Source: a phage. From it: 44,855 nt of DNA. Shown one piece after another: positions 3,050 to 35,078 of this stretch. The number at the start of each line of letters is the position of its first letter. Within the stretch, counting starts at the first letter, position 1. The notes under the pieces were generated by a model, which ran no database searches, was not told where the DNA came from, and saw nothing but the letters and a program-made list of their open reading frames with translations. A program made the translations under genes and the position numbers. The DNA is taken from assembly GCA_012164735.1 (NCBI GenBank), contig GCA_012164735.1_4544.1. The stretch is one strand, 5' to 3'.

Positions 3050-3251
3050 TTGCAAAATACACGGCAGCATGATGCGAAGTGCGGTCATGGATGAACTAGG
3101 CAACCAATGCGGGTTGTATTATGCTGAGTGAAAAATGCGGTTTGCAGTTGCAGCAGATAGCGATCAACTTTTTCATACGCATGATTAATATTGGTTGCAT
3201 TCAGCCTAGCACCCTGCTAGATTGGTTGCACACCAACATGAGGACTGAACA

Positions 3252-3557
3252 ATGAGAGCATTAATCTGGAAATACTCACGGGCCATAGCGAAGCTGGACG
3301 AAGCGAAAAACACAAACGGCAACGTAGACTATGCGCGCCAGTTTGCGGCACGGGCACACCAACACATCATGAGTGCGCTCGACGATATGGACGCCAGCAT
3401 GGATGACCTGGGTCCGCTGCGTAAGGCTATCCATGAATACGCGCTGGCATTCTCCCGTGAGCGCCTGGCCTATCGCTTCGGTATTGGCGATAAGGCAGTG
3501 ACAAACGTCGCCCGGATTAAAGCACAGCGCGAACTATTCGCCCAGCTTGCGAAATAA
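3252..3557 (+). CDS. Hypothetical protein
   Basis: 101-aa ORF with RBS gagga 8 nt upstream. Confidence 0.5.
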   Translation: MRALIWKYSRAIAKLDEAKNTNGNVDYARQFAARAHQHIMSALDDMDASMDDLGPLRKAIHEYALAFSRERLAYRFGIGDKAVTNVARIKAQRELFAQLAK

Positions 3558-3566
3558 GGGGCCAAA

Positions 3567-3836
3567 ATGGGCCGTAGACGAGCTAATCAGCTTTCTTGGC
3601 ATATTCCCCTGCATTGCATACGAATATGGGCTAAGAACGCGATTGAGGGCGATTCCGTGTACTGGTGCTATCGCGACGATGTGAAGCCACTTACGCAGAC
3701 TCGCTACTTGCACCAGTTCGCAGCACAACATGGTTTCTATGTGCGGACTTCCTTGCAACCAATGGGAATACGTATTACATTACGCCGGAAGCCCGCCGTT
3801 GAGCGGGTAGGCAAACACTGGAGACTGAGCAAATGA
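3567..3836 (+). CDS. Hypothetical protein, probable diverged member of a tandem paralog family (C-terminus ERVGKHWRLSK)
   Basis: 89-aa ORF; RBS aagggg; 3' junction ctggagactgagcaaATGa duplicated at the next gene boundary. Confidence 0.4.
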   Translation: MGRRRANQLSWHIPLHCIRIWAKNAIEGDSVYWCYRDDVKPLTQTRYLHQFAAQHGFYVRTSLQPMGIRITLRRKPAVERVGKHWRLSK

Positions 3837-4177
3837 TTCGAGTAACCGCACGCCGCGAACAATCGGGGGCCACTTACGATGTAATCGACGTTCGCGGCGC
3901 GTTCGTCATCTTCGGACGGGGTGACGACCGGCTGGCGCTGCCGATCGGTATGCTGAGCACATACGACTATTTCAAGCATAACGTCCGGTGTGGCGATGTG
4001 CTGCGCGATAAGCGCACCGGTGAGCTATGGACGGTGGCGAGTATTTGGGTGAAAGATAAACGGCAGCACACGTTATTGCTCGCCCGCCCGGATTGCAAAC
4101 AGCAAACTATTAACACTATTGGCCTGGTGGACTACACCCGCGTAGGCCGTAACGCTACCTGGAGACTGAGAAAATGA
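3833..4177 (+). CDS. Hypothetical protein, tandem paralog family (GDVLRD ... LWTV ... VDYTRVGR motifs)
   Basis: 114-aa ORF; ATGA start/stop overlap with upstream gene; shares motifs with 4174-4746. Confidence 0.55.
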   Translation: MIRVTARREQSGATYDVIDVRGAFVIFGRGDDRLALPIGMLSTYDYFKHNVRCGDVLRDKRTGELWTVASIWVKDKRQHTLLLARPDCKQQTINTIGLVDYTRVGRNATWRLRK

Positions 4178-4746
4178 AATTACTATTCCGCCGTAAATCA
4201 GATGGCTATATCCTGAAGCCGATCCAGACCTTATCGAACTGGGTACGCCTCCACCACGTTGCAAGCGATAAAGTCTGGTGGGCGACTAAGGCAAAGCTGC
4301 CGGAGTACTACGAAATCCTCACACACGATATCGAGCACGGCGATGTGCTGCGTGATATTCGCGACGGGCAGTTGTGGGTCGTGGAATACACCTACCGGCA
4401 CGGCCTGCGTATGACGTCCCGCAAGGATGGCGTAGCGGGCAACATGGTCAAGGGCATGACGTACTTCGGGCTAATCAACTACGAACGAGTGGGCCGCAAG
4501 TACAGCAAGCGTGACCACCAGCCACATGAGCGCGTTGATTTCCGCAAGTCCCAGCCGGAATATGCGACCTACGACGCAAGCAAAGCGCAGGGTGCTATTC
4601 GCCAGGCCGCACATGAAATCGTCAATCGCTTTGATGCCGTGGCGAACGCCCAGCGCATGGCCCGTGACTACGGCGTGGCTTTCATCCGCGTGGAATACGA
4701 CGGCAGCATTACCGCAGTTCACCCGCAGAAGATTATCCAGAAATGA
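4174..4746 (+). CDS. Hypothetical protein, tandem paralog family (GDVLRD ... LWVV ... INYERVGR motifs) with C-terminal extension
   Basis: 190-aa ORF; ATGA overlap with upstream gene. Confidence 0.55.
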   Translation: MKLLFRRKSDGYILKPIQTLSNWVRLHHVASDKVWWATKAKLPEYYEILTHDIEHGDVLRDIRDGQLWVVEYTYRHGLRMTSRKDGVAGNMVKGMTYFGLINYERVGRKYSKRDHQPHERVDFRKSQPEYATYDASKAQGAIRQAAHEIVNRFDAVANAQRMARDYGVAFIRVEYDGSITAVHPQKIIQK

Positions 4747-5207: not shown

Positions 5208-5498
5208 ATGGATAAGCTAAACGAGTGGTTATTCGCCCTCGCGTGTCTTGCAGGTGGCTTCGTTGGCGCTCGCATTCACGGGGAGGCAACGAAAGGGCCG
5301 CTAAACTTTGTGTTGTTTATCGTGGTCGGCTTCTTGTGTGCCGTGTTCGGTGCACCGGCTATTGCTGAGTGGTTTAATCTAACCGGACCGAGAACGGTTG
5401 CCGGTCTTGGCTTCGTTACTGCCATCTTCTGGATGCCGGTAGCTGCCAGAATCCGAGAAGCAATTTCCTCGTTCCGTCTGCCGGGGGGTGCAAAATGA
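5208..5498 (+). CDS. Holin candidate (multi-TM small membrane protein)
   Basis: 96 aa, several hydrophobic segments; directly upstream of second membrane protein and the endolysin. Confidence 0.45.
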   Translation: MDKLNEWLFALACLAGGFVGARIHGEATKGPLNFVLFIVVGFLCAVFGAPAIAEWFNLTGPRTVAGLGFVTAIFWMPVAARIREAISSFRLPGGAK

Positions 5499-5737
5499 TT
5501 ATCGCCATCCTGTTATTAGTGATCGGGGCTTCGTCGCTGTATAACGTATACGCGCCATCCGTCCAGGATGGCATTTGCGGACGGGTGCTCTACTTGCTTA
5601 CAGCAATGACCTGTATTATTGGCCTGATGCAAACGGGGGACGTATCGAATACAGTCTGGTCCGTGCTAATCTGGCTATTCGCATTGCGCACGCTGCGTAA
5701 TGCGGTTTTAAATGGGGTAAAACATGCGATTCAGTGA
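5495..5737 (+). CDS. Holin/antiholin candidate (small membrane protein)
   Basis: 80 aa, two hydrophobic segments, overlaps neighbours by 4 and 14 nt. Confidence 0.45.
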   Translation: MIIAILLLVIGASSLYNVYAPSVQDGICGRVLYLLTAMTCIIGLMQTGDVSNTVWSVLIWLFALRTLRNAVLNGVKHAIQ

Positions 5738-6215
5738 CAACGGTCTAAGATTTACGGCAGCCTGGGAGTCATTCAGCCCGGTGCCGTATTTCGCGACTAA
5801 GAAAGAGCAGGCCCGCGGCCTGTATACCTGGGGCTATGGTCATACTGGCACTAATCCGCCGCGGAGCATTACCCGCGCGGAAGCGCTGGATCTACTCAAG
5901 CGTGATGTGGCGTATGCTGAGAACTGGGTGAACAAGTACGCGCATTCGAGTATCAATCAGGCGCAATTCGACGCGCTGGTGGACCTGGTAATCAATGCCG
6001 GTCAGGGTCCAATCGTACCGGACAACATTGCCAACGACTTCGATGACGCGGTGCGCCTGGGTGACTGGGCGAAAGTCCGTGCTACACTGCCACAATTCCG
6101 CAAGCAAGGCGGTGAAGTGCTCAAGGGTCTGGTCCGTCGTGCAATCGGCAGACAGGCGCTATTCGATGGTAAGCAGTGGGACGTTGCCGAGAAAATCGGG
6201 CGTAACGCAGCATAA
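5724..6215 (+). CDS. Endolysin, lysozyme-like (GH24-type glycosidase)
   Basis: 163 aa; E ... GLYTWGYGHTG resembles T4-lysozyme-type catalytic Glu plus GYGH motif. Confidence 0.7.
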   Translation: MRFSDNGLRFTAAWESFSPVPYFATKKEQARGLYTWGYGHTGTNPPRSITRAEALDLLKRDVAYAENWVNKYAHSSINQAQFDALVDLVINAGQGPIVPDNIANDFDDAVRLGDWAKVRATLPQFRKQGGEVLKGLVRRAIGRQALFDGKQWDVAEKIGRNAA

Positions 6216-11573: not shown

Positions 11574-12660
11574 TCAATATATGGCGGACCGCATGATCCG
11601 CCGACACATCTTCACCCAGCGCCTGAGTAATGACCAGGCGCGAAGGGTGCTGTCCATGTGGGAGAAGTTCCGGCCTACATTACTGGGAAAGCTGACCGAG
11701 TTGCTTGATGGCAAATCGTCAATGAACAACAAGGCACTTTCCACCCTGCTAACGCAAATCGACAAGACCGTAAAAACGGAACTGCGCACCGAGTTTAAGG
11801 CGTTGGCTGAAAGCCTTCAGGAGTTTGCAGACACGGAGGCTGATTATCTCGCCGACACATTAACGGCAGCGATCCAGCCGGTGGTCGCCGTACCTGCGGT
11901 CGAGGTGGTTGGTGTAGTGACCGGTGCGCAGATCGCAGCGACGGCTATGAAAAACCCGTTCCAGGGTAATACTATGATGCAATGGCCTGACTCACTTTCA
12001 GAGTGGACAAGGACGCAGATCGGTAACCAGGTGCGAGCGGGATTCATCCAGGGCAAGCCAACGATGGAAATTATTGCGGACGTGAGGCGCGCGCTAGGCG
12101 GTCGTAGTGCGCAAGCGATCTCAAGCGTCGTTAAGTCCGCGGTCAACCACTATGCGGCGACCGCCCGCGAATTAATGGTAAAAGCTAATGACGATATTCT
12201 CGAAGGCCGCCAATGGTTGGCTACATTGGACACGCATACTTCTCCCATGTGCCAGCTACGCGATCGCCTGTTTTATCCGGTTGATGTTACTCCCGACACC
12301 AAAGGAAAGCGCGGCGGGAAAGTGGTGGCTGGATCACAATATGGCGCTGGTCCGGGCAAGTTGCATTATTGCTGCCGTTCGACGGAGACGTGGAAAGTCA
12401 AAGGTATGGAAGATTGGCCCAGTGGTAAGCGTCCGGCACTGAAGGCTGACGCGGGTCGATTGCTTAGTGAGCAGGTCGACGCGCAGACTGATTTCTTCTC
12501 CTGGGTGCAGCGCCAGCCTCGCCATATTCTGGAGGAATTATATGGGGTGCAGCGCGCTGACCAGATTATGCGCGGCGTGAAAGTGCCGAAGATGTTTACC
12601 GATTCTGGCGAACTGATGACTATCGCACAGCTTAAAAACCGGGGGTTATGGCGTGATTAA
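11557..12660 (+). CDS. Head morphogenesis protein (Mu F / SPP1 gp7-like)
   Basis: 367 aa following portal; synteny. Confidence 0.6.
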   Translation: MARTINQYMADRMIRRHIFTQRLSNDQARRVLSMWEKFRPTLLGKLTELLDGKSSMNNKALSTLLTQIDKTVKTELRTEFKALAESLQEFADTEADYLADTLTAAIQPVVAVPAVEVVGVVTGAQIAATAMKNPFQGNTMMQWPDSLSEWTRTQIGNQVRAGFIQGKPTMEIIADVRRALGGRSAQAISSVVKSAVNHYAATARELMVKANDDILEGRQWLATLDTHTSPMCQLRDRLFYPVDVTPDTKGKRGGKVVAGSQYGAGPGKLHYCCRSTETWKVKGMEDWPSGKRPALKADAGRLLSEQVDAQTDFFSWVQRQPRHILEELYGVQRADQIMRGVKVPKMFTDSGELMTIAQLKNRGLWRD

Positions 12661-12982
12661 ATATGCAGCGATTGGGCTGGTTATCGGTCTGGCGGTAGGA
12701 TTCTGGCTAGGTGACTCCTATCGCGCTGGCGTAGTGGCGGAGGCGGCGCAAGAAGCGCAAGCCGAAGCCCAACGGCAGCAAACTAAAGTTGTTGAGCGCT
12801 CCGTGCAGGCAGAACAGGCCCGCGACGTAGAATACCGGACTATCACGAAAGAGGTTGTTAAATATGTTACGCGCCCTAACCGCCCTGATTGTAGTTTTGA
12901 TTCTGAGCGCGTGCGGATCAAGCAACGTGCCGTTGATGCCGCTAACGGAGTCGGCACTGCGACCGCCGTGCAAGTTCGATAG
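12653..12982 (+). CDS. i-spanin (Rz-like): N-terminal TM anchor plus coiled-coil periplasmic domain; GTG start
   Basis: MIKYAAIGLVIGLAVGFWLG TM segment then Ala/Gln/Glu-rich helix; embedded lipoprotein gene in +1 frame. Confidence 0.55.
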   Translation: MIKYAAIGLVIGLAVGFWLGDSYRAGVVAEAAQEAQAEAQRQQTKVVERSVQAEQARDVEYRTITKEVVKYVTRPNRPDCSFDSERVRIKQRAVDAANGVGTATAVQVR

Positions 12983-13094
12983 CCCGTCCGCAGACCCCGA
13001 CGAGGATTTGATGATTGACGTGAAAAATATGGAATGCGGGGCGAAGCTAAGGGCGCAGGTGCTGGAGTTGCAGCAAATAATTAAGGGGCCGTAA
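12864..13094 (+). CDS. o-spanin (Rz1-like outer-membrane lipoprotein), overlapped with and extending beyond the i-spanin gene
   Basis: MLRALTALIVVLILSAC lipobox (LSAC), Pro-rich mature part; RBS agagg; ATG 12864 in frame with ORF-track TTG start at 12855. Confidence 0.55.
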   Translation: MLRALTALIVVLILSACGSSNVPLMPLTESALRPPCKFDSPSADPDEDLMIDVKNMECGAKLRAQVLELQQIIKGP

Positions 13095-13107
13095 TGGCCC
13101 CTTTTTC
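13084..13107. terminator. Bidirectional rho-independent terminator between convergent genes
   Basis: Stem aggggcc/ggcccct, loop gtaat, T5 on plus; A/T flank on minus. Confidence 0.6.
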
Positions 13108-13108
13108 G

Positions 13109-13873
13109 TTATCGCGGAATACCGCAAATCTCGTTGAGAGTTTTCACATCCAGCGCCACCGCCGTGGATTTTGGCTTGTCCGGGTATGGGATGAATTGCT
13201 CAACTTCAGGCCATGCCTTAATCAGCTTTTTGTCAGTATTGTGCAGATCCAGCACACCGGTAACGGTGAGTTTGAACGCATCATACTTCGCGCGCAACTC
13301 GCGACGGGCCTTGTCGTTACGGTCCAGGCGCTTACAGAAGTCGTGGTCTGCCGGGTAGTCCGCGCGACAGCGCGGCTTATAGATCGGCAGCGCTTTCCCG
13401 TCCTCGTCCACTTCGCACACAGAAGCCAGCATTACTTCTTCGTACCCTGGTACAATATCGCCGAGATCGGGAGATAGCTTATTCATGTATTTATATTCCC
13501 AGTATCCGCGATGTACTCGGTATTGTCGTCCGTCGCCGCTCAATGACAGTGTGCGCACATTTCCGCCTGCGTTGATTTCGAAAGTGGCGTCGTAAACGCT
13601 GCCGATGCCTTTTGGGCGGTCAGCGTTATAACTATACGTCGCCTTGTTGGTGTATACGCTTACTCCGTACATCTGCGACGGGTTATCGCCGATTGCTTTA
13701 ATGCGCGCGAGTAGCTCGGCGAAAGTGCGAATGCCTTCCGGCATACAGTCCAGCGTAATGGCGTACGCCAGGTCGCGCGAGTCCATCATGATGGATTTGG
13801 CTTCGGTCGCGATTTCATGGTCGCGCAGGATGTTAGCCAGAATCCGGTTTTTAATGTCTTTCGTCAGTCTCAT
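13109..13873 (-). CDS. Hypothetical protein (254 aa) encoded opposite to the structural operon
   Basis: ATG with RBS gagga; no recognisable domain by inspection. Confidence 0.6.
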   Translation of the reverse strand: MRLTKDIKNRILANILRDHEIATEAKSIMMDSRDLAYAITLDCMPEGIRTFAELLARIKAIGDNPSQMYGVSVYTNKATYSYNADRPKGIGSVYDATFEINAGGNVRTLSLSGDGRQYRVHRGYWEYKYMNKLSPDLGDIVPGYEEVMLASVCEVDEDGKALPIYKPRCRADYPADHDFCKRLDRNDKARRELRAKYDAFKLTVTGVLDLHNTDKKLIKAWPEVEQFIPYPDKPKSTAVALDVKTLNEICGIPR

Positions 13874-13916
13874 TATTGTGTCCTCATTGTTGGGGCTTTC
13901 GCCCCTGTTGGTTTAG

Positions 13917-14324
13917 TTAAAGTGCTTCGAGAATCTCGTAAAACTTATTCGCCAGCGCCTGGCGTCGTTCGAATTTTTCAGTGATAACCAATTCCGGGCG
14001 GTTAAATAGCTTTGCGTGGGTGTTCCAATTGAGGATTTCCGTTTCCATTATTTTCTTCCTGTTGTAATCGGTGTTTTTGATGCTGAATTCCTTGATAGCG
14101 TTATTAAGAAAATCAGTCATACACTCAACGTCTGTTCTCTTAACTTCGAACGTACGGGCCTCGATTGGGCTATTTGTGCGAAGTACGACGACTCCGCCGT
14201 GGTAGGTGTCGACTACCATATACTTATAAGTCACCCCATCCCACTCCGGGTCGAAAGGGCGCCCAAATACGTCGTCGGCTTTCCATACTTTCTGGTACGG
14301 TGTTTCTTTGATTAATGTTGGCAT
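13917..14324 (-). CDS. Hypothetical protein (136 aa), start moved to internal ATG 14324 with RBS aaggaa
   Basis: N-terminal 151 codons of the ORF-track call are low-complexity antisense of the scaffold gene; RBS precedes MPTLIKE. Confidence 0.5.
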   Translation of the reverse strand: MPTLIKETPYQKVWKADDVFGRPFDPEWDGVTYKYMVVDTYHGGVVVLRTNSPIEARTFEVKRTDVECMTDFLNNAIKEFSIKNTDYNRKKIMETEILNWNTHAKLFNRPELVITEKFERRQALANKFYEILEAL

Positions 14325-14352
14325 CTTGTTTTCCTTCATATCTCTGTTGGTG

Positions 14353-14375
14353 TGCAACCAATATATGCAACCAAT
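14353..14375 (+). promoter_or_regulatory. Paired TGCAACCAAT motifs (14353-14362, 14366-14375) in a divergent intergenic region
   Basis: Two perfect 10-mers 13 bp apart. Confidence 0.5.
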
Positions 14376-14414
14376 ACGAGGATTGCAAGCGAATTTTGCG
14401 ATTATTTTTATCGC

Positions 14415-14423
14415 TGATAATAT
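14415..14423 (+). promoter_or_regulatory. Extended -10 promoter candidate (TGaTAATAT) preceded by TCGCTGATA, upstream of scaffold and capsid genes
   Basis: Same TCGCTGATA-extended -10 arrangement recurs at 20281-20293. Confidence 0.35.
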
Positions 14424-14478
14424 TAGAAGCGTGAAGTCGAGCGGGTGGCCTGCTCTGCCACAATCCCAGGGGGATAGC

Positions 14479-15180
14479 ATGAAACTTACTAAAGCAGAAT
14501 ATGACGCGTTGCCGGAAGGTATGAAGGCGCTTTTTGTTGCCGATGGCGACGGGTATAAATCAACTTTCATGACCGCAGAAGAAGTACAGGCGGAAATCAA
14601 GGGTCTGAAAGACAACAACGCGAAGCTGGTGAGCGAGAAGAAAGCAGAAGCTGAACGCCGCGCCGAAGCCGAGCGACTTGCGAAAGAGAAAGAGGAAGCC
14701 GCTGCGCGCAAAAATGGCGACCTCGAAGCGATCGACAAGTCCTGGAAAGATAAGTTTGCGAAACACGAAGCAGACACATCGGGAAAAATCGAAGCCTACC
14801 GCAAGCAGATCCACGATCTCACCATCGGCAGCGCCGCCAAAGACCTGGCGTCGAAGCTGTTCGGTAAGAATGCGGGCATCATGCAACGTCACGTTATGGA
14901 CCGCCTGACGCTGGAAGACGGCGAAGACGGCAGCTTGAAAGTGCGTGTCTTGCAGGATGGCAAACCGTCCGCGCTGACTATGGAAGAGCTTGAAAAAGAG
15001 TTCCGTAATAACGCCGATTTTGCATCCGTCCTGGCTGGCACGCCAGCCGGTGGCGCGCCTAGCAAACCGACGCAGGTTGTCGAAGATGTGAAGTCTAAAA
15101 TTACGATGGGCCATAGCTTCGGTATCACCGATCTCACCAAACAGGCCGGGGATATCATCGCTAAAATGGGCGACGAGTAA
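14479..15180 (+). CDS. Scaffolding protein (putative), start at ATG 14479
   Basis: 233 aa, charged coiled-coil-like sequence; RBS aggggga; immediately upstream of major capsid gene. Confidence 0.5.
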   Translation: MKLTKAEYDALPEGMKALFVADGDGYKSTFMTAEEVQAEIKGLKDNNAKLVSEKKAEAERRAEAERLAKEKEEAAARKNGDLEAIDKSWKDKFAKHEADTSGKIEAYRKQIHDLTIGSAAKDLASKLFGKNAGIMQRHVMDRLTLEDGEDGSLKVRVLQDGKPSALTMEELEKEFRNNADFASVLAGTPAGGAPSKPTQVVEDVKSKITMGHSFGITDLTKQAGDIIAKMGDE

Positions 15181-15185
15181 GCAGA

Positions 15186-15209
15186 TTGCCCGCGAAAGCG
15201 GGCAATTTT
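15186..15209 (+). terminator. Rho-independent terminator
   Basis: Stem ttgcccgc/gcgggcaa, GAAA loop, T4. Confidence 0.5.
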
Positions 15210-15277
15210 GCGAGCGCGTAAAACTAAGGTAACATTAATGCCACTGGGCGAATGCTCACAACTCAAAGGATTTCGAT

Positions 15278-16378
15278 ATGTCTTTAACAGTGTTCCAGCG
15301 TAAACTCGTTACCGCGGTTACGCAAATGATCCCCGACAACCTGAACGTTTTCAACGCCGCCGCCAATGGCGCTATTGTTCTCGGTACTGGTGAAGTGCTG
15401 AAGGATGTTGTTGAGAAAATGTCCGTAGGCTTGATCGCCAACCTTGTTACCGACCGTAACGCCTACGCCCCTGTCGGTACTCCGGCAACCGCTAAAGTGC
15501 TGGCGCGTATGTTGACCAACTCGGTTAACCTTTCCGCTAAAGTGGGTCCGGTAGCAATCACGAAGGCCATGATGGCTAAAATCGAAACCAACGTTAATAG
15601 CGTTGCGGCTGAGATTGCGGCACAGGCTACTCAAGCGATTATGCTGCACTACCTAAAAGCGGGTATCGGTGCGGGTAAAGCGGCGATCGAAAGCAACGCA
15701 GCGGCAAAATACACCCAACCGGCGCGCGTTGACGGCGTTGGCGGTCGTACCTTCCCGACCCTGGCAGACTTCCCGCTGGCGGCTTCTAAGTTCGGCGATC
15801 AGGCGTCTTTGATTAAGTCCTGGTTTATGGACGGCGTTACCTGGGCAAACTTCATTGCGTACCAGGCACTCCCTTCCGCTGAACAGGTATTCGCAATTGG
15901 CGATCTACAGGTAATGGGTGATGGCCTGGGCCGTCGCTTCATTATCTCCGATGCCGCTGCCGATGCTATGGGCGCTGGTAACATGCTGGGTCTGGTCCCC
16001 GGCGCGGTTGCAGTTACCACCAACGGCCTCGATATGCTGGCGCAGGAGAAAGGCGGTAACGAGAACATCGAACGCTGGTGGCAGGGCGAGTTCGACTTCA
16101 ACGTGGCCGTTAAAGGCTACCGTCTGAAGGCGTCCGCTCGTACCCCGATCGAAGGTGTGCGCTCGTTCAAACTGGACGATATTACCACTTCCGCTAACTG
16201 GGAACTGGACCAGGGCCAGGTAGACAACGCACCGGCAACCGTGCAGGACGTTGGCGCTGTGGGTGATGGTGATACTAAAGGTCGTCGTAAGACCCAGGCC
16301 GCACAGGCAGTGCCTACCCGTCACATCAAGGAAACCGCTGGCGTACTGGTTACGCTGACTGCGACTACCGCGTCTTAA
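15278..16378 (+). CDS. Major capsid protein
   Basis: 366 aa, RBS aagga, followed by strong terminator; synteny. Confidence 0.75.
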   Translation: MSLTVFQRKLVTAVTQMIPDNLNVFNAAANGAIVLGTGEVLKDVVEKMSVGLIANLVTDRNAYAPVGTPATAKVLARMLTNSVNLSAKVGPVAITKAMMAKIETNVNSVAAEIAAQATQAIMLHYLKAGIGAGKAAIESNAAAKYTQPARVDGVGGRTFPTLADFPLAASKFGDQASLIKSWFMDGVTWANFIAYQALPSAEQVFAIGDLQVMGDGLGRRFIISDAAADAMGAGNMLGLVPGAVAVTTNGLDMLAQEKGGNENIERWWQGEFDFNVAVKGYRLKASARTPIEGVRSFKLDDITTSANWELDQGQVDNAPATVQDVGAVGDGDTKGRRKTQAAQAVPTRHIKETAGVLVTLTATTAS

Positions 16379-29196: not shown

Positions 29197-29219
29197 AGGG
29201 GCCATCCGGCCCCTTTTTT
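29197..29219. terminator. Bidirectional terminator between J-like gene and the minus-strand cassette
   Basis: Stem aggggcc/ggcccct, loop atcc, T6. Confidence 0.6.
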
Positions 29220-30183
29220 AATAGATATTAGGAATGACGAGTAACGGGGTGGGTACGGCAATATTTTTGCCCGGCATTTGGAATTGCTGCCGTGAGTAGT
29301 TGCCAATAACGCGGTTTTTAGCGATGCGCACATTATTACCCGCCATTCGTATCCCGTTCATGCGCACATGGTTATAGCCGCTGTTGTTCTCAATGAGCGC
29401 ACCGGTATATGAAAGCTGGATCAGACTATTACCGATGTGCTGGTCGCCGCCACCGATATTAATCGTGCGGTCGTAGACAAACGGCTTGTTTACCGTCGAG
29501 AACGTGACCTGCCCCTGGTTGTTAGTCATGGTGATACCGGTCCCCGGTGAGGGCGGCGTATTGTTGAATATCACCAGGTCCATATCAACGGCAGCGCCTA
29601 CGTCGTCAATCCCGCCATAGGACGCATTACGGACAATGATACTTCCGCCATCGAAGCCAACCGATACGTTGCCGTCGTCCCAGCGCGCGAACGGGACACC
29701 GCCGACGGGAAGCGGCATACTTCCGTTTACATGCACGCGCTGCGCATATCGGCAGGTCATTAGCCGTGCGACGTTGGATATTGCGGTGAAGTCCGTTGCG
29801 TTAGCTACCAGTAAGCCCGCATTGCGTGACCCCACCGGCAGCACTTCCATAATCACCCCGCCCCATGTTGGAAGCCCGCTGTATGCGTTATAGGCATCCT
29901 CACCGCGCAAGGTGATTCCGCCATCCCCGTTACGTTGTATCGACGTCACATAAAACGGGTCTGGCAAGACCAGGGTCTGGTCGAATACTTCCATCACTTC
30001 TACCGGATTAGTTAGGGCAACGACCAGTTCGGACCCCGGTGTCAGCGGTGTGTTAATGGTCAGCGTCTTGTCAGACTGACAGCGCTGATTAAAGGTAGTG
30101 CAGAACGACGGAGCGCGAAGGCCCGCGGTTATCTCCATGACAGGTCTACCGTCGTTGTAGTCGATAAGTATTCCAGCACCCAT
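29218..30183 (-). CDS. Hypothetical Gly/Asn-rich beta-rich protein (321 aa; ATG 30183 preferred over GTG 30192)
   Basis: RBS gggag 9 nt upstream of the ATG; no signal peptide; repeat-like beta-strand composition. Confidence 0.55.
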   Translation of the reverse strand: MGAGILIDYNDGRPVMEITAGLRAPSFCTTFNQRCQSDKTLTINTPLTPGSELVVALTNPVEVMEVFDQTLVLPDPFYVTSIQRNGDGGITLRGEDAYNAYSGLPTWGGVIMEVLPVGSRNAGLLVANATDFTAISNVARLMTCRYAQRVHVNGSMPLPVGGVPFARWDDGNVSVGFDGGSIIVRNASYGGIDDVGAAVDMDLVIFNNTPPSPGTGITMTNNQGQVTFSTVNKPFVYDRTINIGGGDQHIGNSLIQLSYTGALIENNSGYNHVRMNGIRMAGNNVRIAKNRVIGNYSRQQFQMPGKNIAVPTPLLVIPNIY

Positions 30184-30185
30184 TA

Positions 30186-30407
30186 TTACCACTCCCGTGA
30201 TTTAACTGATACAGTACCTGAGAAATTGCCGTCGCTATCGGCAGATAGGCCAGTGAAGCGCATGTCCACGCCTCCGGCAGGGACTTTTTGCCCGTCAACA
30301 TAACGCAACATGCAGCTTCCGTAAGCCACCGTAATGCAATCACCGTTGTTGCGTTCTACGGCACAACCGGACAAAAGAACAGCACAAATCATAATTAAAG
30401 TTTTCAT
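30186..30407 (-). CDS. Small lipoprotein (73 aa), candidate superinfection-exclusion protein (Cor/Llp-like)
   Basis: MKTLIMICAVLLSGC signal peptide with lipobox LSGC; strong RBS aggag; location between tail tip and fiber genes. Confidence 0.6.
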   Translation of the reverse strand: MKTLIMICAVLLSGCAVERNNGDCITVAYGSCMLRYVDGQKVPAGGVDMRFTGLSADSDGNFSGTVSVKSREW

Positions 30408-30487
30408 GTTATCATCTCCTATATTTGGTTGAGTTTTAGTATTACACCGCTCGATCAAGAATGCAACCAATTTATGAGGATTTAGCT

Positions 30488-34161: not shown

Positions 34162-34627
34162 GCAATTCTCCTTCGCTCATTATTTCAATTTGTGCGCTGC
34201 CGATGGGCGGCGCTTCGTCAAATATTATTAATTGCTGGCACTTGTTATTGCTCGGCCCGACTTCACCGGTGACTGCATGTATGAATCGGATCCGCCAGTC
34301 CAGAAGAATTATCAGATTTGCAGTCTTCCGGGCCAGCTTCGCCCACTTCGTCGACGTGTCCTGATTCAGTAGCATGACGGTCCGACGGCCATGCGCTGCG
34401 CACTCAACCCACGGCAGCGGATCGGAATATGGCGGGTTGCACCATTTCCACCCTTTCAACTCGGACCAGTCAGCATCAAGCGCGCTGTGCTCCGCAGTGA
34501 AGTAACGCGGTAGCAGGTGGTTGGTGTCGCTTGCCGCCATATCGTAACGGAATCGGTATTTCCGGCGCAGTGGTTTAAATAAAGCTGGCGGCGTGCGCCA
34601 GCTATCTTTTTGCTCACTCTTCGTCAT
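34142..34627 (-). CDS. DNA N6-adenine methyltransferase (phage Dam-like); start uncertain (34627, 34645 or 34654)
   Basis: WCNPPYSD motif IV; W ... TPP near N-terminus. Confidence 0.7.
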   Translation of the reverse strand: MTKSEQKDSWRTPPALFKPLRRKYRFRYDMAASDTNHLLPRYFTAEHSALDADWSELKGWKWCNPPYSDPLPWVECAAHGRRTVMLLNQDTSTKWAKLARKTANLIILLDWRIRFIHAVTGEVGPSNNKCQQLIIFDEAPPIGSAQIEIMSEGELREYLNR

Positions 34628-35078
34628 TCTGCGGGTCCAGTGCATATAGGGCAATCTTTTCGTATTTGCCGACTATGCGATGCACGCGCTTTGCGTCCTC
34701 TTCACTACGTGGGCGCGCATCCGTGTAGTAGCTACCAGTTTGAGTATTGTGCCACGCCATAAGCACCAAATCTTTCCGGGCGATCGAAGACTGGCGGCCC
34801 TTCGGACGCACGTACTCCTCCGCACGTTTACAGTGCTCCCGCAACGCATCGGCAGTGATGCGGTTTAGTGCAACGCTGGTGGTGTATCCGGTGCGCTGCA
34901 TAATCCCCATCAGTTCGAAAAGCAGTTCGAAGCGCTCCTCTAACTCCATGCGGCGCTTTTCTTCCGTTTCATAGCTTGACAGGTAGGTATCTGCCAGCGC
35001 GCTGACGCGTTCTGCCTGTTCGCGGGCTTCGAGGCATTGCGCGGCCCAGTAGTTTTTCTCTTCTTGTAAAATTTTCAT
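34614..35078 (-). CDS. Hypothetical protein
   Basis: 154 aa, RBS ggaga. Confidence 0.45.
   Translation of the reverse strand: MKILQEEKNYWAAQCLEAREQAERVSALADTYLSSYETEEKRRMELEERFELLFELMGIMQRTGYTTSVALNRITADALREHCKRAEEYVRPKGRQSSIARKDLVLMAWHNTQTGSYYTDARPRSEEDAKRVHRIVGKYEKIALYALDPQNDEE

Follow-up and report, generated by a model that had tools for sequence, protein, structure and literature searches.

A leftward Dhillonvirus operon in the head-gene block, with an Nmad5-family gene and an orphan gene in a variable upstream slot

The closest described counterpart of the locus considered here is nmad5 of the Dhillonvirus phages PhiSMA8 (CDS7) and PhiSMS22 (CDS6), the same gene at the same locus, which has been studied through mutants that escape the membrane NTPase Tmn (Yamashita et al. 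2025, PMC11846954). Tmn escape maps to Nmad5 K216E in PhiSMA8 and to the equivalent K296E in PhiSMS22, and reverting the escape mutation restores Tmn sensitivity; deletion of nmad5 is viable but gives no Tmn escape, and the gene could not be cloned in E. coli because of toxicity (PMC11846954). Tmn is known to be triggered by direct recognition of the T2 protein RIIB, which, like Nmad5, is a non-essential phage accessory protein with Tmn escape mutations (PMC13001434). RIIB is recognizable as a trigger because rIIB nonsense mutations give escape, whereas for nmad5 deletion does not and only K216E does. Here, we analyzed a stretch of phage DNA of 44,855 nucleotides (GenBank assembly GCA_012164735.1, contig GCA_012164735.1_4544.1; the window), in which an Nmad5-family gene and a second gene encoding a 135-residue protein lie on the minus strand within a block of plus-strand head genes.

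We consider it reasonably likely that this region is a leftward Dhillonvirus accessory operon, non-structural and dispensable, with Nmad5 and the protein of an acquired 135-codon gene as its non-enzymatic products. The non-structural, dispensable character is suggested because nmad5 deletion is viable, natural truncations occur, and no protein of the cassette is among the virion proteins listed in the one study of the virion proteome of Dhillonvirus EE09. The position between the promoter and the Nmad5 gene, here termed the slot, is filled differently among relatives. The elements of the region are as follows, in window coordinates.

13109 to 13873, minus strand: Nmad5-family gene, 254 residues, conserved operon resident (Pfam PF18757, phrog_1965)
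13917 to 14324, minus strand: orphan accessory gene, 135 residues, slot allele A of the HK578 gp6 type, horizontally acquired insert
13874 to 13916, minus strand: spacer between the two genes, with a GGGGCGAAAGCCCC hairpin (13892 to 13905) and the GAGGA ribosome-binding site of Nmad5
14325 to 14388, minus strand: operon leader and predicted sigma-70-like promoter (TTGCAA at 14388 to 14383, TATATT at 14365 to 14360)
13083 to 13107, both strands: bidirectional intrinsic terminator of the spanin operon (plus) and the accessory operon (minus), stem at 13083 to 13103, plus-strand T-run to 13107
14389 to 14478, plus strand: upstream region of the scaffold gene, with an imperfect palindrome, CGCTGATAATATTAGAAGCG, at 14412 to 14431
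12653 to 13094, plus strand: overlapping i-spanin and o-spanin genes, left neighbor (phrog_2536, E = 1.4e-36; phrog_5672, E = 4.6e-26)
14479 to 15180, plus strand: head scaffolding protein gene, right neighbor (phrog_206, E = 3.6e-51)

An initial annotation made from the DNA letters had proposed the two minus-strand open reading frames (ORFs), and both are real. AT skew is inverted across 13150 to 14350, as minus-strand coding predicts, and the ratio of nonsynonymous to synonymous substitution (dN/dS) indicates purifying selection on the Nmad5 gene (0.04 to 0.15 against 13 relatives) and on the 135-residue gene (0.03 to 0.06), the latter differing from its more distant L018 copy by 19 synonymous and 8 non-synonymous codon changes. 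The start of the 135-residue gene is preceded by an AAGGA Shine-Dalgarno sequence, and the same 408-nucleotide ORF was picked in the GenBank annotation of PTXU06; its product had been given as 136 residues, a figure in which the stop codon was counted. By inspection, neither product has a predicted membrane segment or signal peptide. Both are hydrophilic (grand average of hydropathy about -0.5), and their isoelectric points (6.15 and 8.15) are not those of a strongly acidic DNA mimic. The overall architecture, confirmed in this way, is ordinary for phage genomes.

A megablast search with positions 12600 to 15300 matched 159 phage records, nearly all of them Escherichia or Shigella Dhillonvirus, the closest being vB_EcoS_PTXU06 (95.4% identity, 100% query cover). 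Judged by these matches, the window is a Dhillonvirus coliphage. Its gene order, mapped through the annotation of JLBYU60, is the usual one for the genus: on the plus strand to the left of the unit lie terS, terL, the portal gene, the head morphogenesis gene, i-spanin, and o-spanin, and to the right of the two minus-strand genes the plus strand resumes with the scaffold gene and then the major capsid protein gene. An Rfam search of the entire window returned nothing.

The 254-residue protein belongs to the Nmad5 family. It matches PF18757 at E = 2.2e-57 (194.9 bits against a cut-off of 27), its residues 1 to 253 aligning with profile positions 1 to 206 of 206; it also matches phrog_1965, and all 76 aligned homologs likewise match PF18757. 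The signature residues of the family are present (R2, L3, T4, A175, D176, H177, T213, K215, K216, L217, W221, P222, E223, L246, N247, G251, and P253), each in a column conserved in 65 to 75 of the 76 sequences. The best-conserved motif, T-x-K-[RK]-L-[IV]-x-x-W-P-E, spans residues 213 to 223 and includes position 216, which is R or K in 73 of the 76 members. A weak match to a sigma factor in NCBIfam (E = 0.065; 13 bits, where the cut-off is 247) was disregarded. The initial annotation had seen no assignable motif in either protein and had pointed to the pair as the best place in the window to look for an undescribed function. For the larger gene neither statement survives, and most of the mystery is gone, since this is a full-length member of a named family with phenotypes reported from the same genus (PMC11846954); the small, rare gene, which had no family match and has no detectable relatives of known function, stays a candidate for a role in host interaction.

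Nmad5 was found by tblastn in 339 phage records. About 150 Dhillonvirus records carry it at 85 to 98% identity, always at this junction, and the GC content of the window gene is genome-like (53.1% against 54.6% for the window). The proposal that the whole unit is an insert thus fails, Nmad5 lying at the same junction and in the same orientation in nearly every Dhillonvirus. In SM_S24 the gene is partly lost, with a 184-residue N-terminal fragment left, and in Teewinot it is mostly deleted, with ~62 codons remaining; these states are secondary truncation and deletion of Nmad5, respectively. Relatives elsewhere, in M6-like Pseudomonas phages, Stx-converting and other lambdoid phages, and Vibrio and Bordetella phages, match over the C-terminal 80 to 100 residues only.

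Compared with the published Dhillonvirus proteins, the window Nmad5 is 91% identical to the SM_S22 core, and residues 173 to 254, K216 included, are identical. The window adds the 135-residue gene upstream, whereas the slot is empty in SM_S22 and holds an unrelated 104-residue allele in SM_A8. SM_S22 Nmad5 is annotated as a protein of 334 residues (L028, 5005 to 6009), hence K296 for K216; the additional 80 codons lie upstream, cross the motif-bearing promoter described below, and overlap the annotated scaffold gene. Because SM_S22 is an empty-slot phage, this longer form looks like an ORF-calling artifact rather than a protein with a genuine additional N-terminal domain.

Two more distant settings of Nmad5 bear on its role. 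The M6-like (Yuavirus) proteins share the Pfam family and the C-terminal signature with the window protein, but at ~186 residues they lack an insert of ~70 residues found in the Dhillonvirus form, and they are flanked by aGPT-Pplase1 and a thymidylate-synthase-like gene, neighbors that do not occur in the window. There, the neighbors of Nmad5 are the spanin and scaffold genes, and the Dam- and Dcm-like methyltransferase genes are ~20 kb away; the neighborhood of modification and nucleotide genes on which the family name is based is absent from the window locus and, likewise, from most prophage members, a difference that bears on the name and leaves homology untouched. In lambdoid prophages of E. 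coli and Klebsiella, Nmad5 belongs to the same family and lies in the dispensable early PL region, a host-interaction region, beside Ral, cIII, Kil, and Abc2; its surroundings contain no modification genes. These prophage proteins differ from the window protein in their temperate hosts, in their length (~207 to 210 residues), and in an identity of 31 to 36% confined to the C-terminal third; moreover, the lambdoid PL operon is under repressor and N control, whereas the Dhillonvirus unit is under a motif-bearing promoter. The order in E. coli prophages is cI, N, Ral, Nmad5, cIII, Kil, Erf, Abc2; Nmad5 is first after the repressor gene in Klebsiella prophages, lies between Nun and cIII in mEp235, and closes a run of small early genes in Hungariovirus C130_2. 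By analogy, this early placement would match an accessory rather than a biosynthetic role.

The label "DNA modification enzyme" derives solely from the M6-like gene neighborhood. The 5-NedU pathway of M6 has been rebuilt in vitro from gp51, gp52, gp53, and gp54 alone (PMC8989533). An AlphaFold2 model of the window Nmad5 built on an alignment of 76 sequences (predicted local distance difference test [pLDDT] score of 75.7; predicted template modeling score of 0.74) has long paired helices (residues 20 to 42 and 178 to 208), a four-stranded beta-meander, short C-terminal helices, and a tail that is conserved yet poorly ordered. No recognizable catalytic fold or demonstrated activity was found for Nmad5: a Foldseek search of the model against BFVD returned only uncharacterized Nmad5 members, with no match to a solved fold, and a sequence-profile search of the PDB was empty. 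The recurrent weak secondary Pfam matches among family members were all to coiled-coil families. Dhillonviruses have in addition been reported as moderately to considerably sensitive to restriction-modification systems. Because of the model and fold searches, the coiled-coil matches, the M6 reconstitution, the PL context, and this restriction-modification sensitivity, Nmad5 is probably an early, non-enzymatic accessory protein.

If so, the reading of the Tmn puzzle, in which K216E escapes and deletion does not, would change, and the conserved basic motif would become a candidate interaction surface. The window protein keeps K216. No likeness in sequence or fold was found between Nmad5 and RIIB (the RIIA-RIIB match has E = 5). 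A homolog of the SM_S22 anti-Tmn protein ORF35 is encoded at 34614 to 35078 on the minus strand (154 residues, 78% identity), between Dam-like methyltransferase and HNH genes; the window phage therefore combines an unmutated K216 in Nmad5 with a putative anti-Tmn allele. Two further links to defense were considered: Ksap1, the Dhillonvirus trigger of KpAvs2, was rejected, and the HK578 mutants that escape OLD lie in replication genes and not at this locus.

The 135-residue protein has no match in Pfam, PHROG, NCBIfam, or PADLOC, or among PDB sequences, and its family comprises just four clusters at 90% identity among 5.8 billion proteins. An exhaustive profile search of 1.84 billion representatives added two genuine relatives; four further matches (P0127 to P0130) were tandem-repeat proteins with summed weak per-repeat scores and incoherent Pfam assignments and were discarded as artifacts. 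The family is a very rare, mobile orphan, new and without known relatives. Within Dhillonvirus, tblastn found the gene in four distinct phages (PTXU06, Zar3M, HK578, and SM_W22; 7 records). At 52 to 56% identity, homologs occur in the Serratia Bigdog group and in the Erwinia phage Snitter (Drexlerviridae), and outside Dhillonvirus, two metagenomic phage contigs included, they are never beside Nmad5. In all, the family is present in at least five phage backbones, amid small accessory genes. In the window its GC content is 45.1%, below both the Nmad5 gene (53.1%) and the window as a whole (54.6%), and the Bigdog and Snitter homologs are 6 to 9 points under their own phages. In the SM_W22 copy (L003, 2817 to 3335), 37 codons of the helical C-terminal half (DRKKIMETEILNWNTHAKLFNRPELVITEKFERRQAL) are duplicated perfectly, in tandem and in frame, so that the protein has 172 residues.

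The contents of the slot were compared across ten IMG/VR loci and several GenBank records, and they are at least four unrelated genes, or none. In empty-slot phages (Envy, Gluttony, SECphi18, SM_S22, several BASEL phages, and many more), the promoter leads directly into ...CACCAACAACGAGGACACACAAATG, and the alignment is unbroken over the promoter and Nmad5. Allele A is the 135-residue gene. Allele B, an unrelated protein of 104 residues, is found in ~61 Dhillonvirus records and has relatives in a Pantoea phage, in ~150-kb coliphages, and in Salmonella phage SW16-7; allele C, of 53 residues, is found in 4 records; and allele D, of 172 residues, is found in EP23 and, at no less than 80% identity, in ~15 further records, and its 269 distant relatives are spread over many siphophages. 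Allele D resembles the central domain of the DnaN sliding clamp, but only weakly and below threshold. This DnaN-like protein (EP23; L015, 2359 to 2919) is a single domain with relatives in 285 phage records, one of which, in the Kagunavirus fFiEco02 (L026, 1801 to 2322), lies on the opposite strand between head-morphogenesis and capsid genes; judged by this similarity, the slot protein could be a clamp mimic or a clamp binder.

Alleles A, B, and D have identical flanks. The left flank is the leader up to the start codon, where alleles A and B both carry ATGAAGGAAAACAA[G/A]ATG, and the right flank is CTAAACCAA..GGGGCGAAAGCCCC followed by the Nmad5 ribosome-binding site. The GGGGCGAAAGCCCC hairpin has a GAAA loop (a GNRA cap), a predicted energy of -11.5 kcal/mol, and no U-tract; it stands behind alleles A, B, and D and is absent from allele C and from empty-slot phages. 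The repeat CCAACA brackets the insert on both sides and is a single copy in empty-slot phages. The swapping of alleles would be explained by homologous exchange across these conserved flanks.

A moron is an additional gene, equipped with a promoter and a terminator of its own, between genes that are adjacent in relatives. The 135-residue gene shares with lambdoid and HK97-like morons its presence or absence between otherwise adjacent sequences and its deviant GC content, and the Bigdog homolog has the full layout, standing free as terminator, TTGACG-17-TATAGT promoter, gene, and terminator. Unlike morons, the gene in the window uses the resident operon promoter, which is also found in empty-slot phages, and the hairpin behind it, unlike moron terminators, has no U-tract. 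Because the host phage is virulent, there would be no expression in the prophage state, unlike for lambdoid morons. The initial annotation had called both genes together a moron. An opposite-strand unit with a predicted promoter and terminator, non-structural and dispensable, is borne out, and comparison with related phages, suggested there as a check, found the 135-residue gene present at this junction in some and absent from others; the terms moron and insert do not suit the whole unit. For the 135-residue gene alone the moron reading is well supported, by presence or absence and replacement by other alleles in close relatives, by foreign GC content, and by the free-standing Bigdog homolog, with the reservation that this copy has neither a promoter nor a terminator of its own.

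As the homologs lacking an Nmad5 neighbor suggest, the 135-residue protein would act independently of Nmad5. Our best guess at its role is inhibition of a host factor, a role that would suit a small, cytoplasmic protein with this distribution and under purifying selection.

The minus-strand promoter predicted by scan is TTGCAA-17-TATATT (14388..14360), and the intergenic region around it carries the paired motifs that the initial annotation had pointed out. The sequence TGCAACCAATA occurs twice, starting at 14353 and 14366 (13-nucleotide spacing); extended as TGCAACCAAT(A), the copies occupy 14353 to 14363 and 14366 to 14376, and the 10-mer motif itself lies at 14353 to 14362 and 14366 to 14375. 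One of these copies abuts the -10 hexamer, and the second shares the final three bases of that hexamer. Neither the hexamers nor the two copies show any variation in 11 loci, whereas the 7 to 9 bases from the -35 hexamer to the first copy vary freely. Across the window, with up to one mismatch allowed, the motif has 18 sites against 3.15 expected, a count reached in 0 of 100 shuffles. Nearly all sites fall in intergenic promoter regions, frequently in pairs, with varying spacing (13 to 35 nucleotides) and orientation, and JLBYU60 has the motif at corresponding positions. Exact copies of TGCAACCAAT (reverse complement ATTGGTTGCA) number 11, and about nine intergenic promoter regions are marked (for example, at 2783/2818, 3190/3221, 6441/6464, 14353/14366, 30462, 33460/33472, 35133/35150, and 44823). 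The motif is probably a binding site for a putative phage regulator or a phage-specific promoter element. Because the same motif marks about nine promoter regions, the unit would belong to a phage-wide regulatory circuit rather than being expressed autonomously.

On the scaffold side, the palindrome CGCTGATAATATTAGAAGCG (14412 to 14431) is conserved in 11 of 11 compared loci, and the scan found no consensus plus-strand promoter in the region upstream of the scaffold gene (14389 to 14478). Scaffold-capsid transcription may need an activator, since no consensus plus-strand promoter was detected there. At the other end of the unit, the bidirectional terminator claimed in the initial annotation was recovered: the stem-loop at 13083 to 13103 scores on both strands (-15.4 and -15.9 kcal/mol), with a T-run that is strong on the plus strand and weaker on the minus strand (UUAAUUAUUU). 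The o-spanin stop codon sits within the loop of this common terminator, and 11 related loci retain the stem, in the variants GGGGCC/GGCCCC and GGGGGCC/GGCCCCC. The spanin genes (12653 to 13094) end the terminase-portal-head morphogenesis operon, ~6.5 kb from the holin/endolysin genes (5208 to 6212).

Taken together, the accessory-operon reading would run as follows. A conserved promoter with two motif copies, which in many relatives would drive Nmad5 directly, would be transcribed by the host RNA polymerase, presumably early in infection, and the transcript would end at the terminator shared with the convergent spanin operon. In the window phage, the 135-residue gene and the hairpin behind it form an insertion at the CCAACA repeat, downstream of the promoter and ahead of the ribosome-binding site of Nmad5. 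A putative phage regulator on the paired motif copies would probably shut the promoter off; since the copies cover the -10 hexamer and the start region, a bound protein would block initiation. More speculatively, the same regulator may help switch on the divergent scaffold-capsid promoter. Both products would be cytoplasmic and non-enzymatic, acting on host or replication-associated factors. Nmad5 may be a coiled-coil adaptor whose basic C-terminal motif, K216 included, serves as an interaction surface, so that charge reversal at K216 would alter what Tmn senses; K216E may either add a contact to the complex that is sensed or remove one from it, and full loss of Nmad5 would leave the real trigger in place. 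The 135-residue protein would be a free-standing, mobile accessory protein that most probably inhibits a host factor, for instance one of the immunity proteins.

A bolder version of this model, which we regard as possible and tentative, takes the promoter-Nmad5 slot to be a counter-defense "plug-in" site, the 135-residue protein to be a new inhibitor family, and Nmad5 to be a misnamed, non-enzymatic coiled-coil hub. If it were true, small cytoplasmic inhibitors of a host immunity or housekeeping factor would be spreading horizontally among at least five backbones of Enterobacterales phages, the basic C-terminal motif of Nmad5 would contact a pathway monitored by Tmn, and "nucleotide modification" would be a misnomer. 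Whatever its function, the slot offers a compact natural panel of alleles, which can be swapped by in vitro rebooting, for testing plating against defense systems.

Several points weigh against the accessory-operon reading as set out above. The conserved A-[DE]-H motif of Nmad5 (H in 65 of the 76 members) and its toxicity in E. coli are compatible with enzymatic activity, and a missing enzyme fold is no proof of missing catalysis. The K216E evidence is genetic only and comes from phages other than that of the window. The total from the sigma-70 promoter scan was no better than chance (2 found against 2.6 expected), and the model of the 135-residue protein is weak (pLDDT of 67, with the N-terminal half below 55), so that a fold search with it weighs neither way. 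The first of these points lead to the strongest rival, in which Nmad5 does modify DNA as an enzyme, so that the operon would act on phage DNA and the resulting modification would be what Tmn senses. This is the reading preferred by the authors of the Tmn study (PMC11846954), and it is favored further by the place of the Nmad5 gene in M6-like Yuavirus, within a thymidine hypermodification and nucleotide-metabolism cluster. Given the fold searches, the gene contexts, and the restriction-modification sensitivity described above, we judge it unlikely.

Still less likely is a toxin/antidote or superinfection-exclusion module, in which Nmad5 would be a toxin neutralized by the upstream product, or the two would jointly exclude other phages. 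Nmad5 alone is toxic and could not be cloned, a short spacer is all that separates the two genes of the operon, and a moron-like gene in a lytic phage could serve exclusion. However, many Dhillonviruses have Nmad5 without any upstream gene, at least four unrelated proteins fill the position upstream of it, and homologs of the 135-residue protein are encoded in Serratia and Erwinia phages and on two metagenomic phage contigs, in each case without Nmad5. By inspection, membrane segments and signal peptides are predicted for neither protein, and a search with PADLOC models gave 0 matches at E <= 0.1 for Nmad5, the 135-residue protein, and three other slot alleles. A role in head assembly, as structural accessory genes acting with the scaffold and capsid proteins, is highly improbable: the unit does sit in the middle of the head-gene block, conserved there genus-wide, and in one Kagunavirus the corresponding position holds an opposite-strand gene, but nmad5 can be deleted and is naturally truncated or deleted, neither protein is among the reported EE09 virion proteins, Nmad5 homologs elsewhere lie in early, non-structural regions, and more than 90% of the genus lacks the 135-residue gene. 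The outcome that the initial annotation had named as contrary to its proposal, conserved core structural genes, was therefore not what we found.

Other parts of the window also vary among relatives. Several small early genes at 4174 to 4590 and 3091 to 3833 are just 38 to 78% identical to those of JLBYU60, where their neighbors exceed 90%, and they appear to be additional accessory loci that vary. Between the J-like tail tip and tail fiber genes there is another opposite-strand unit (29218 to 30470, minus strand). It comprises a 324-residue ORF and a small ORF with a lipoprotein signal (MKTLIMICAVLLSGC...) and differs from the JLBYU60 genes there; the fiber downstream of it is only 43% identical, and the region looks like a receptor-binding and exclusion swap region.

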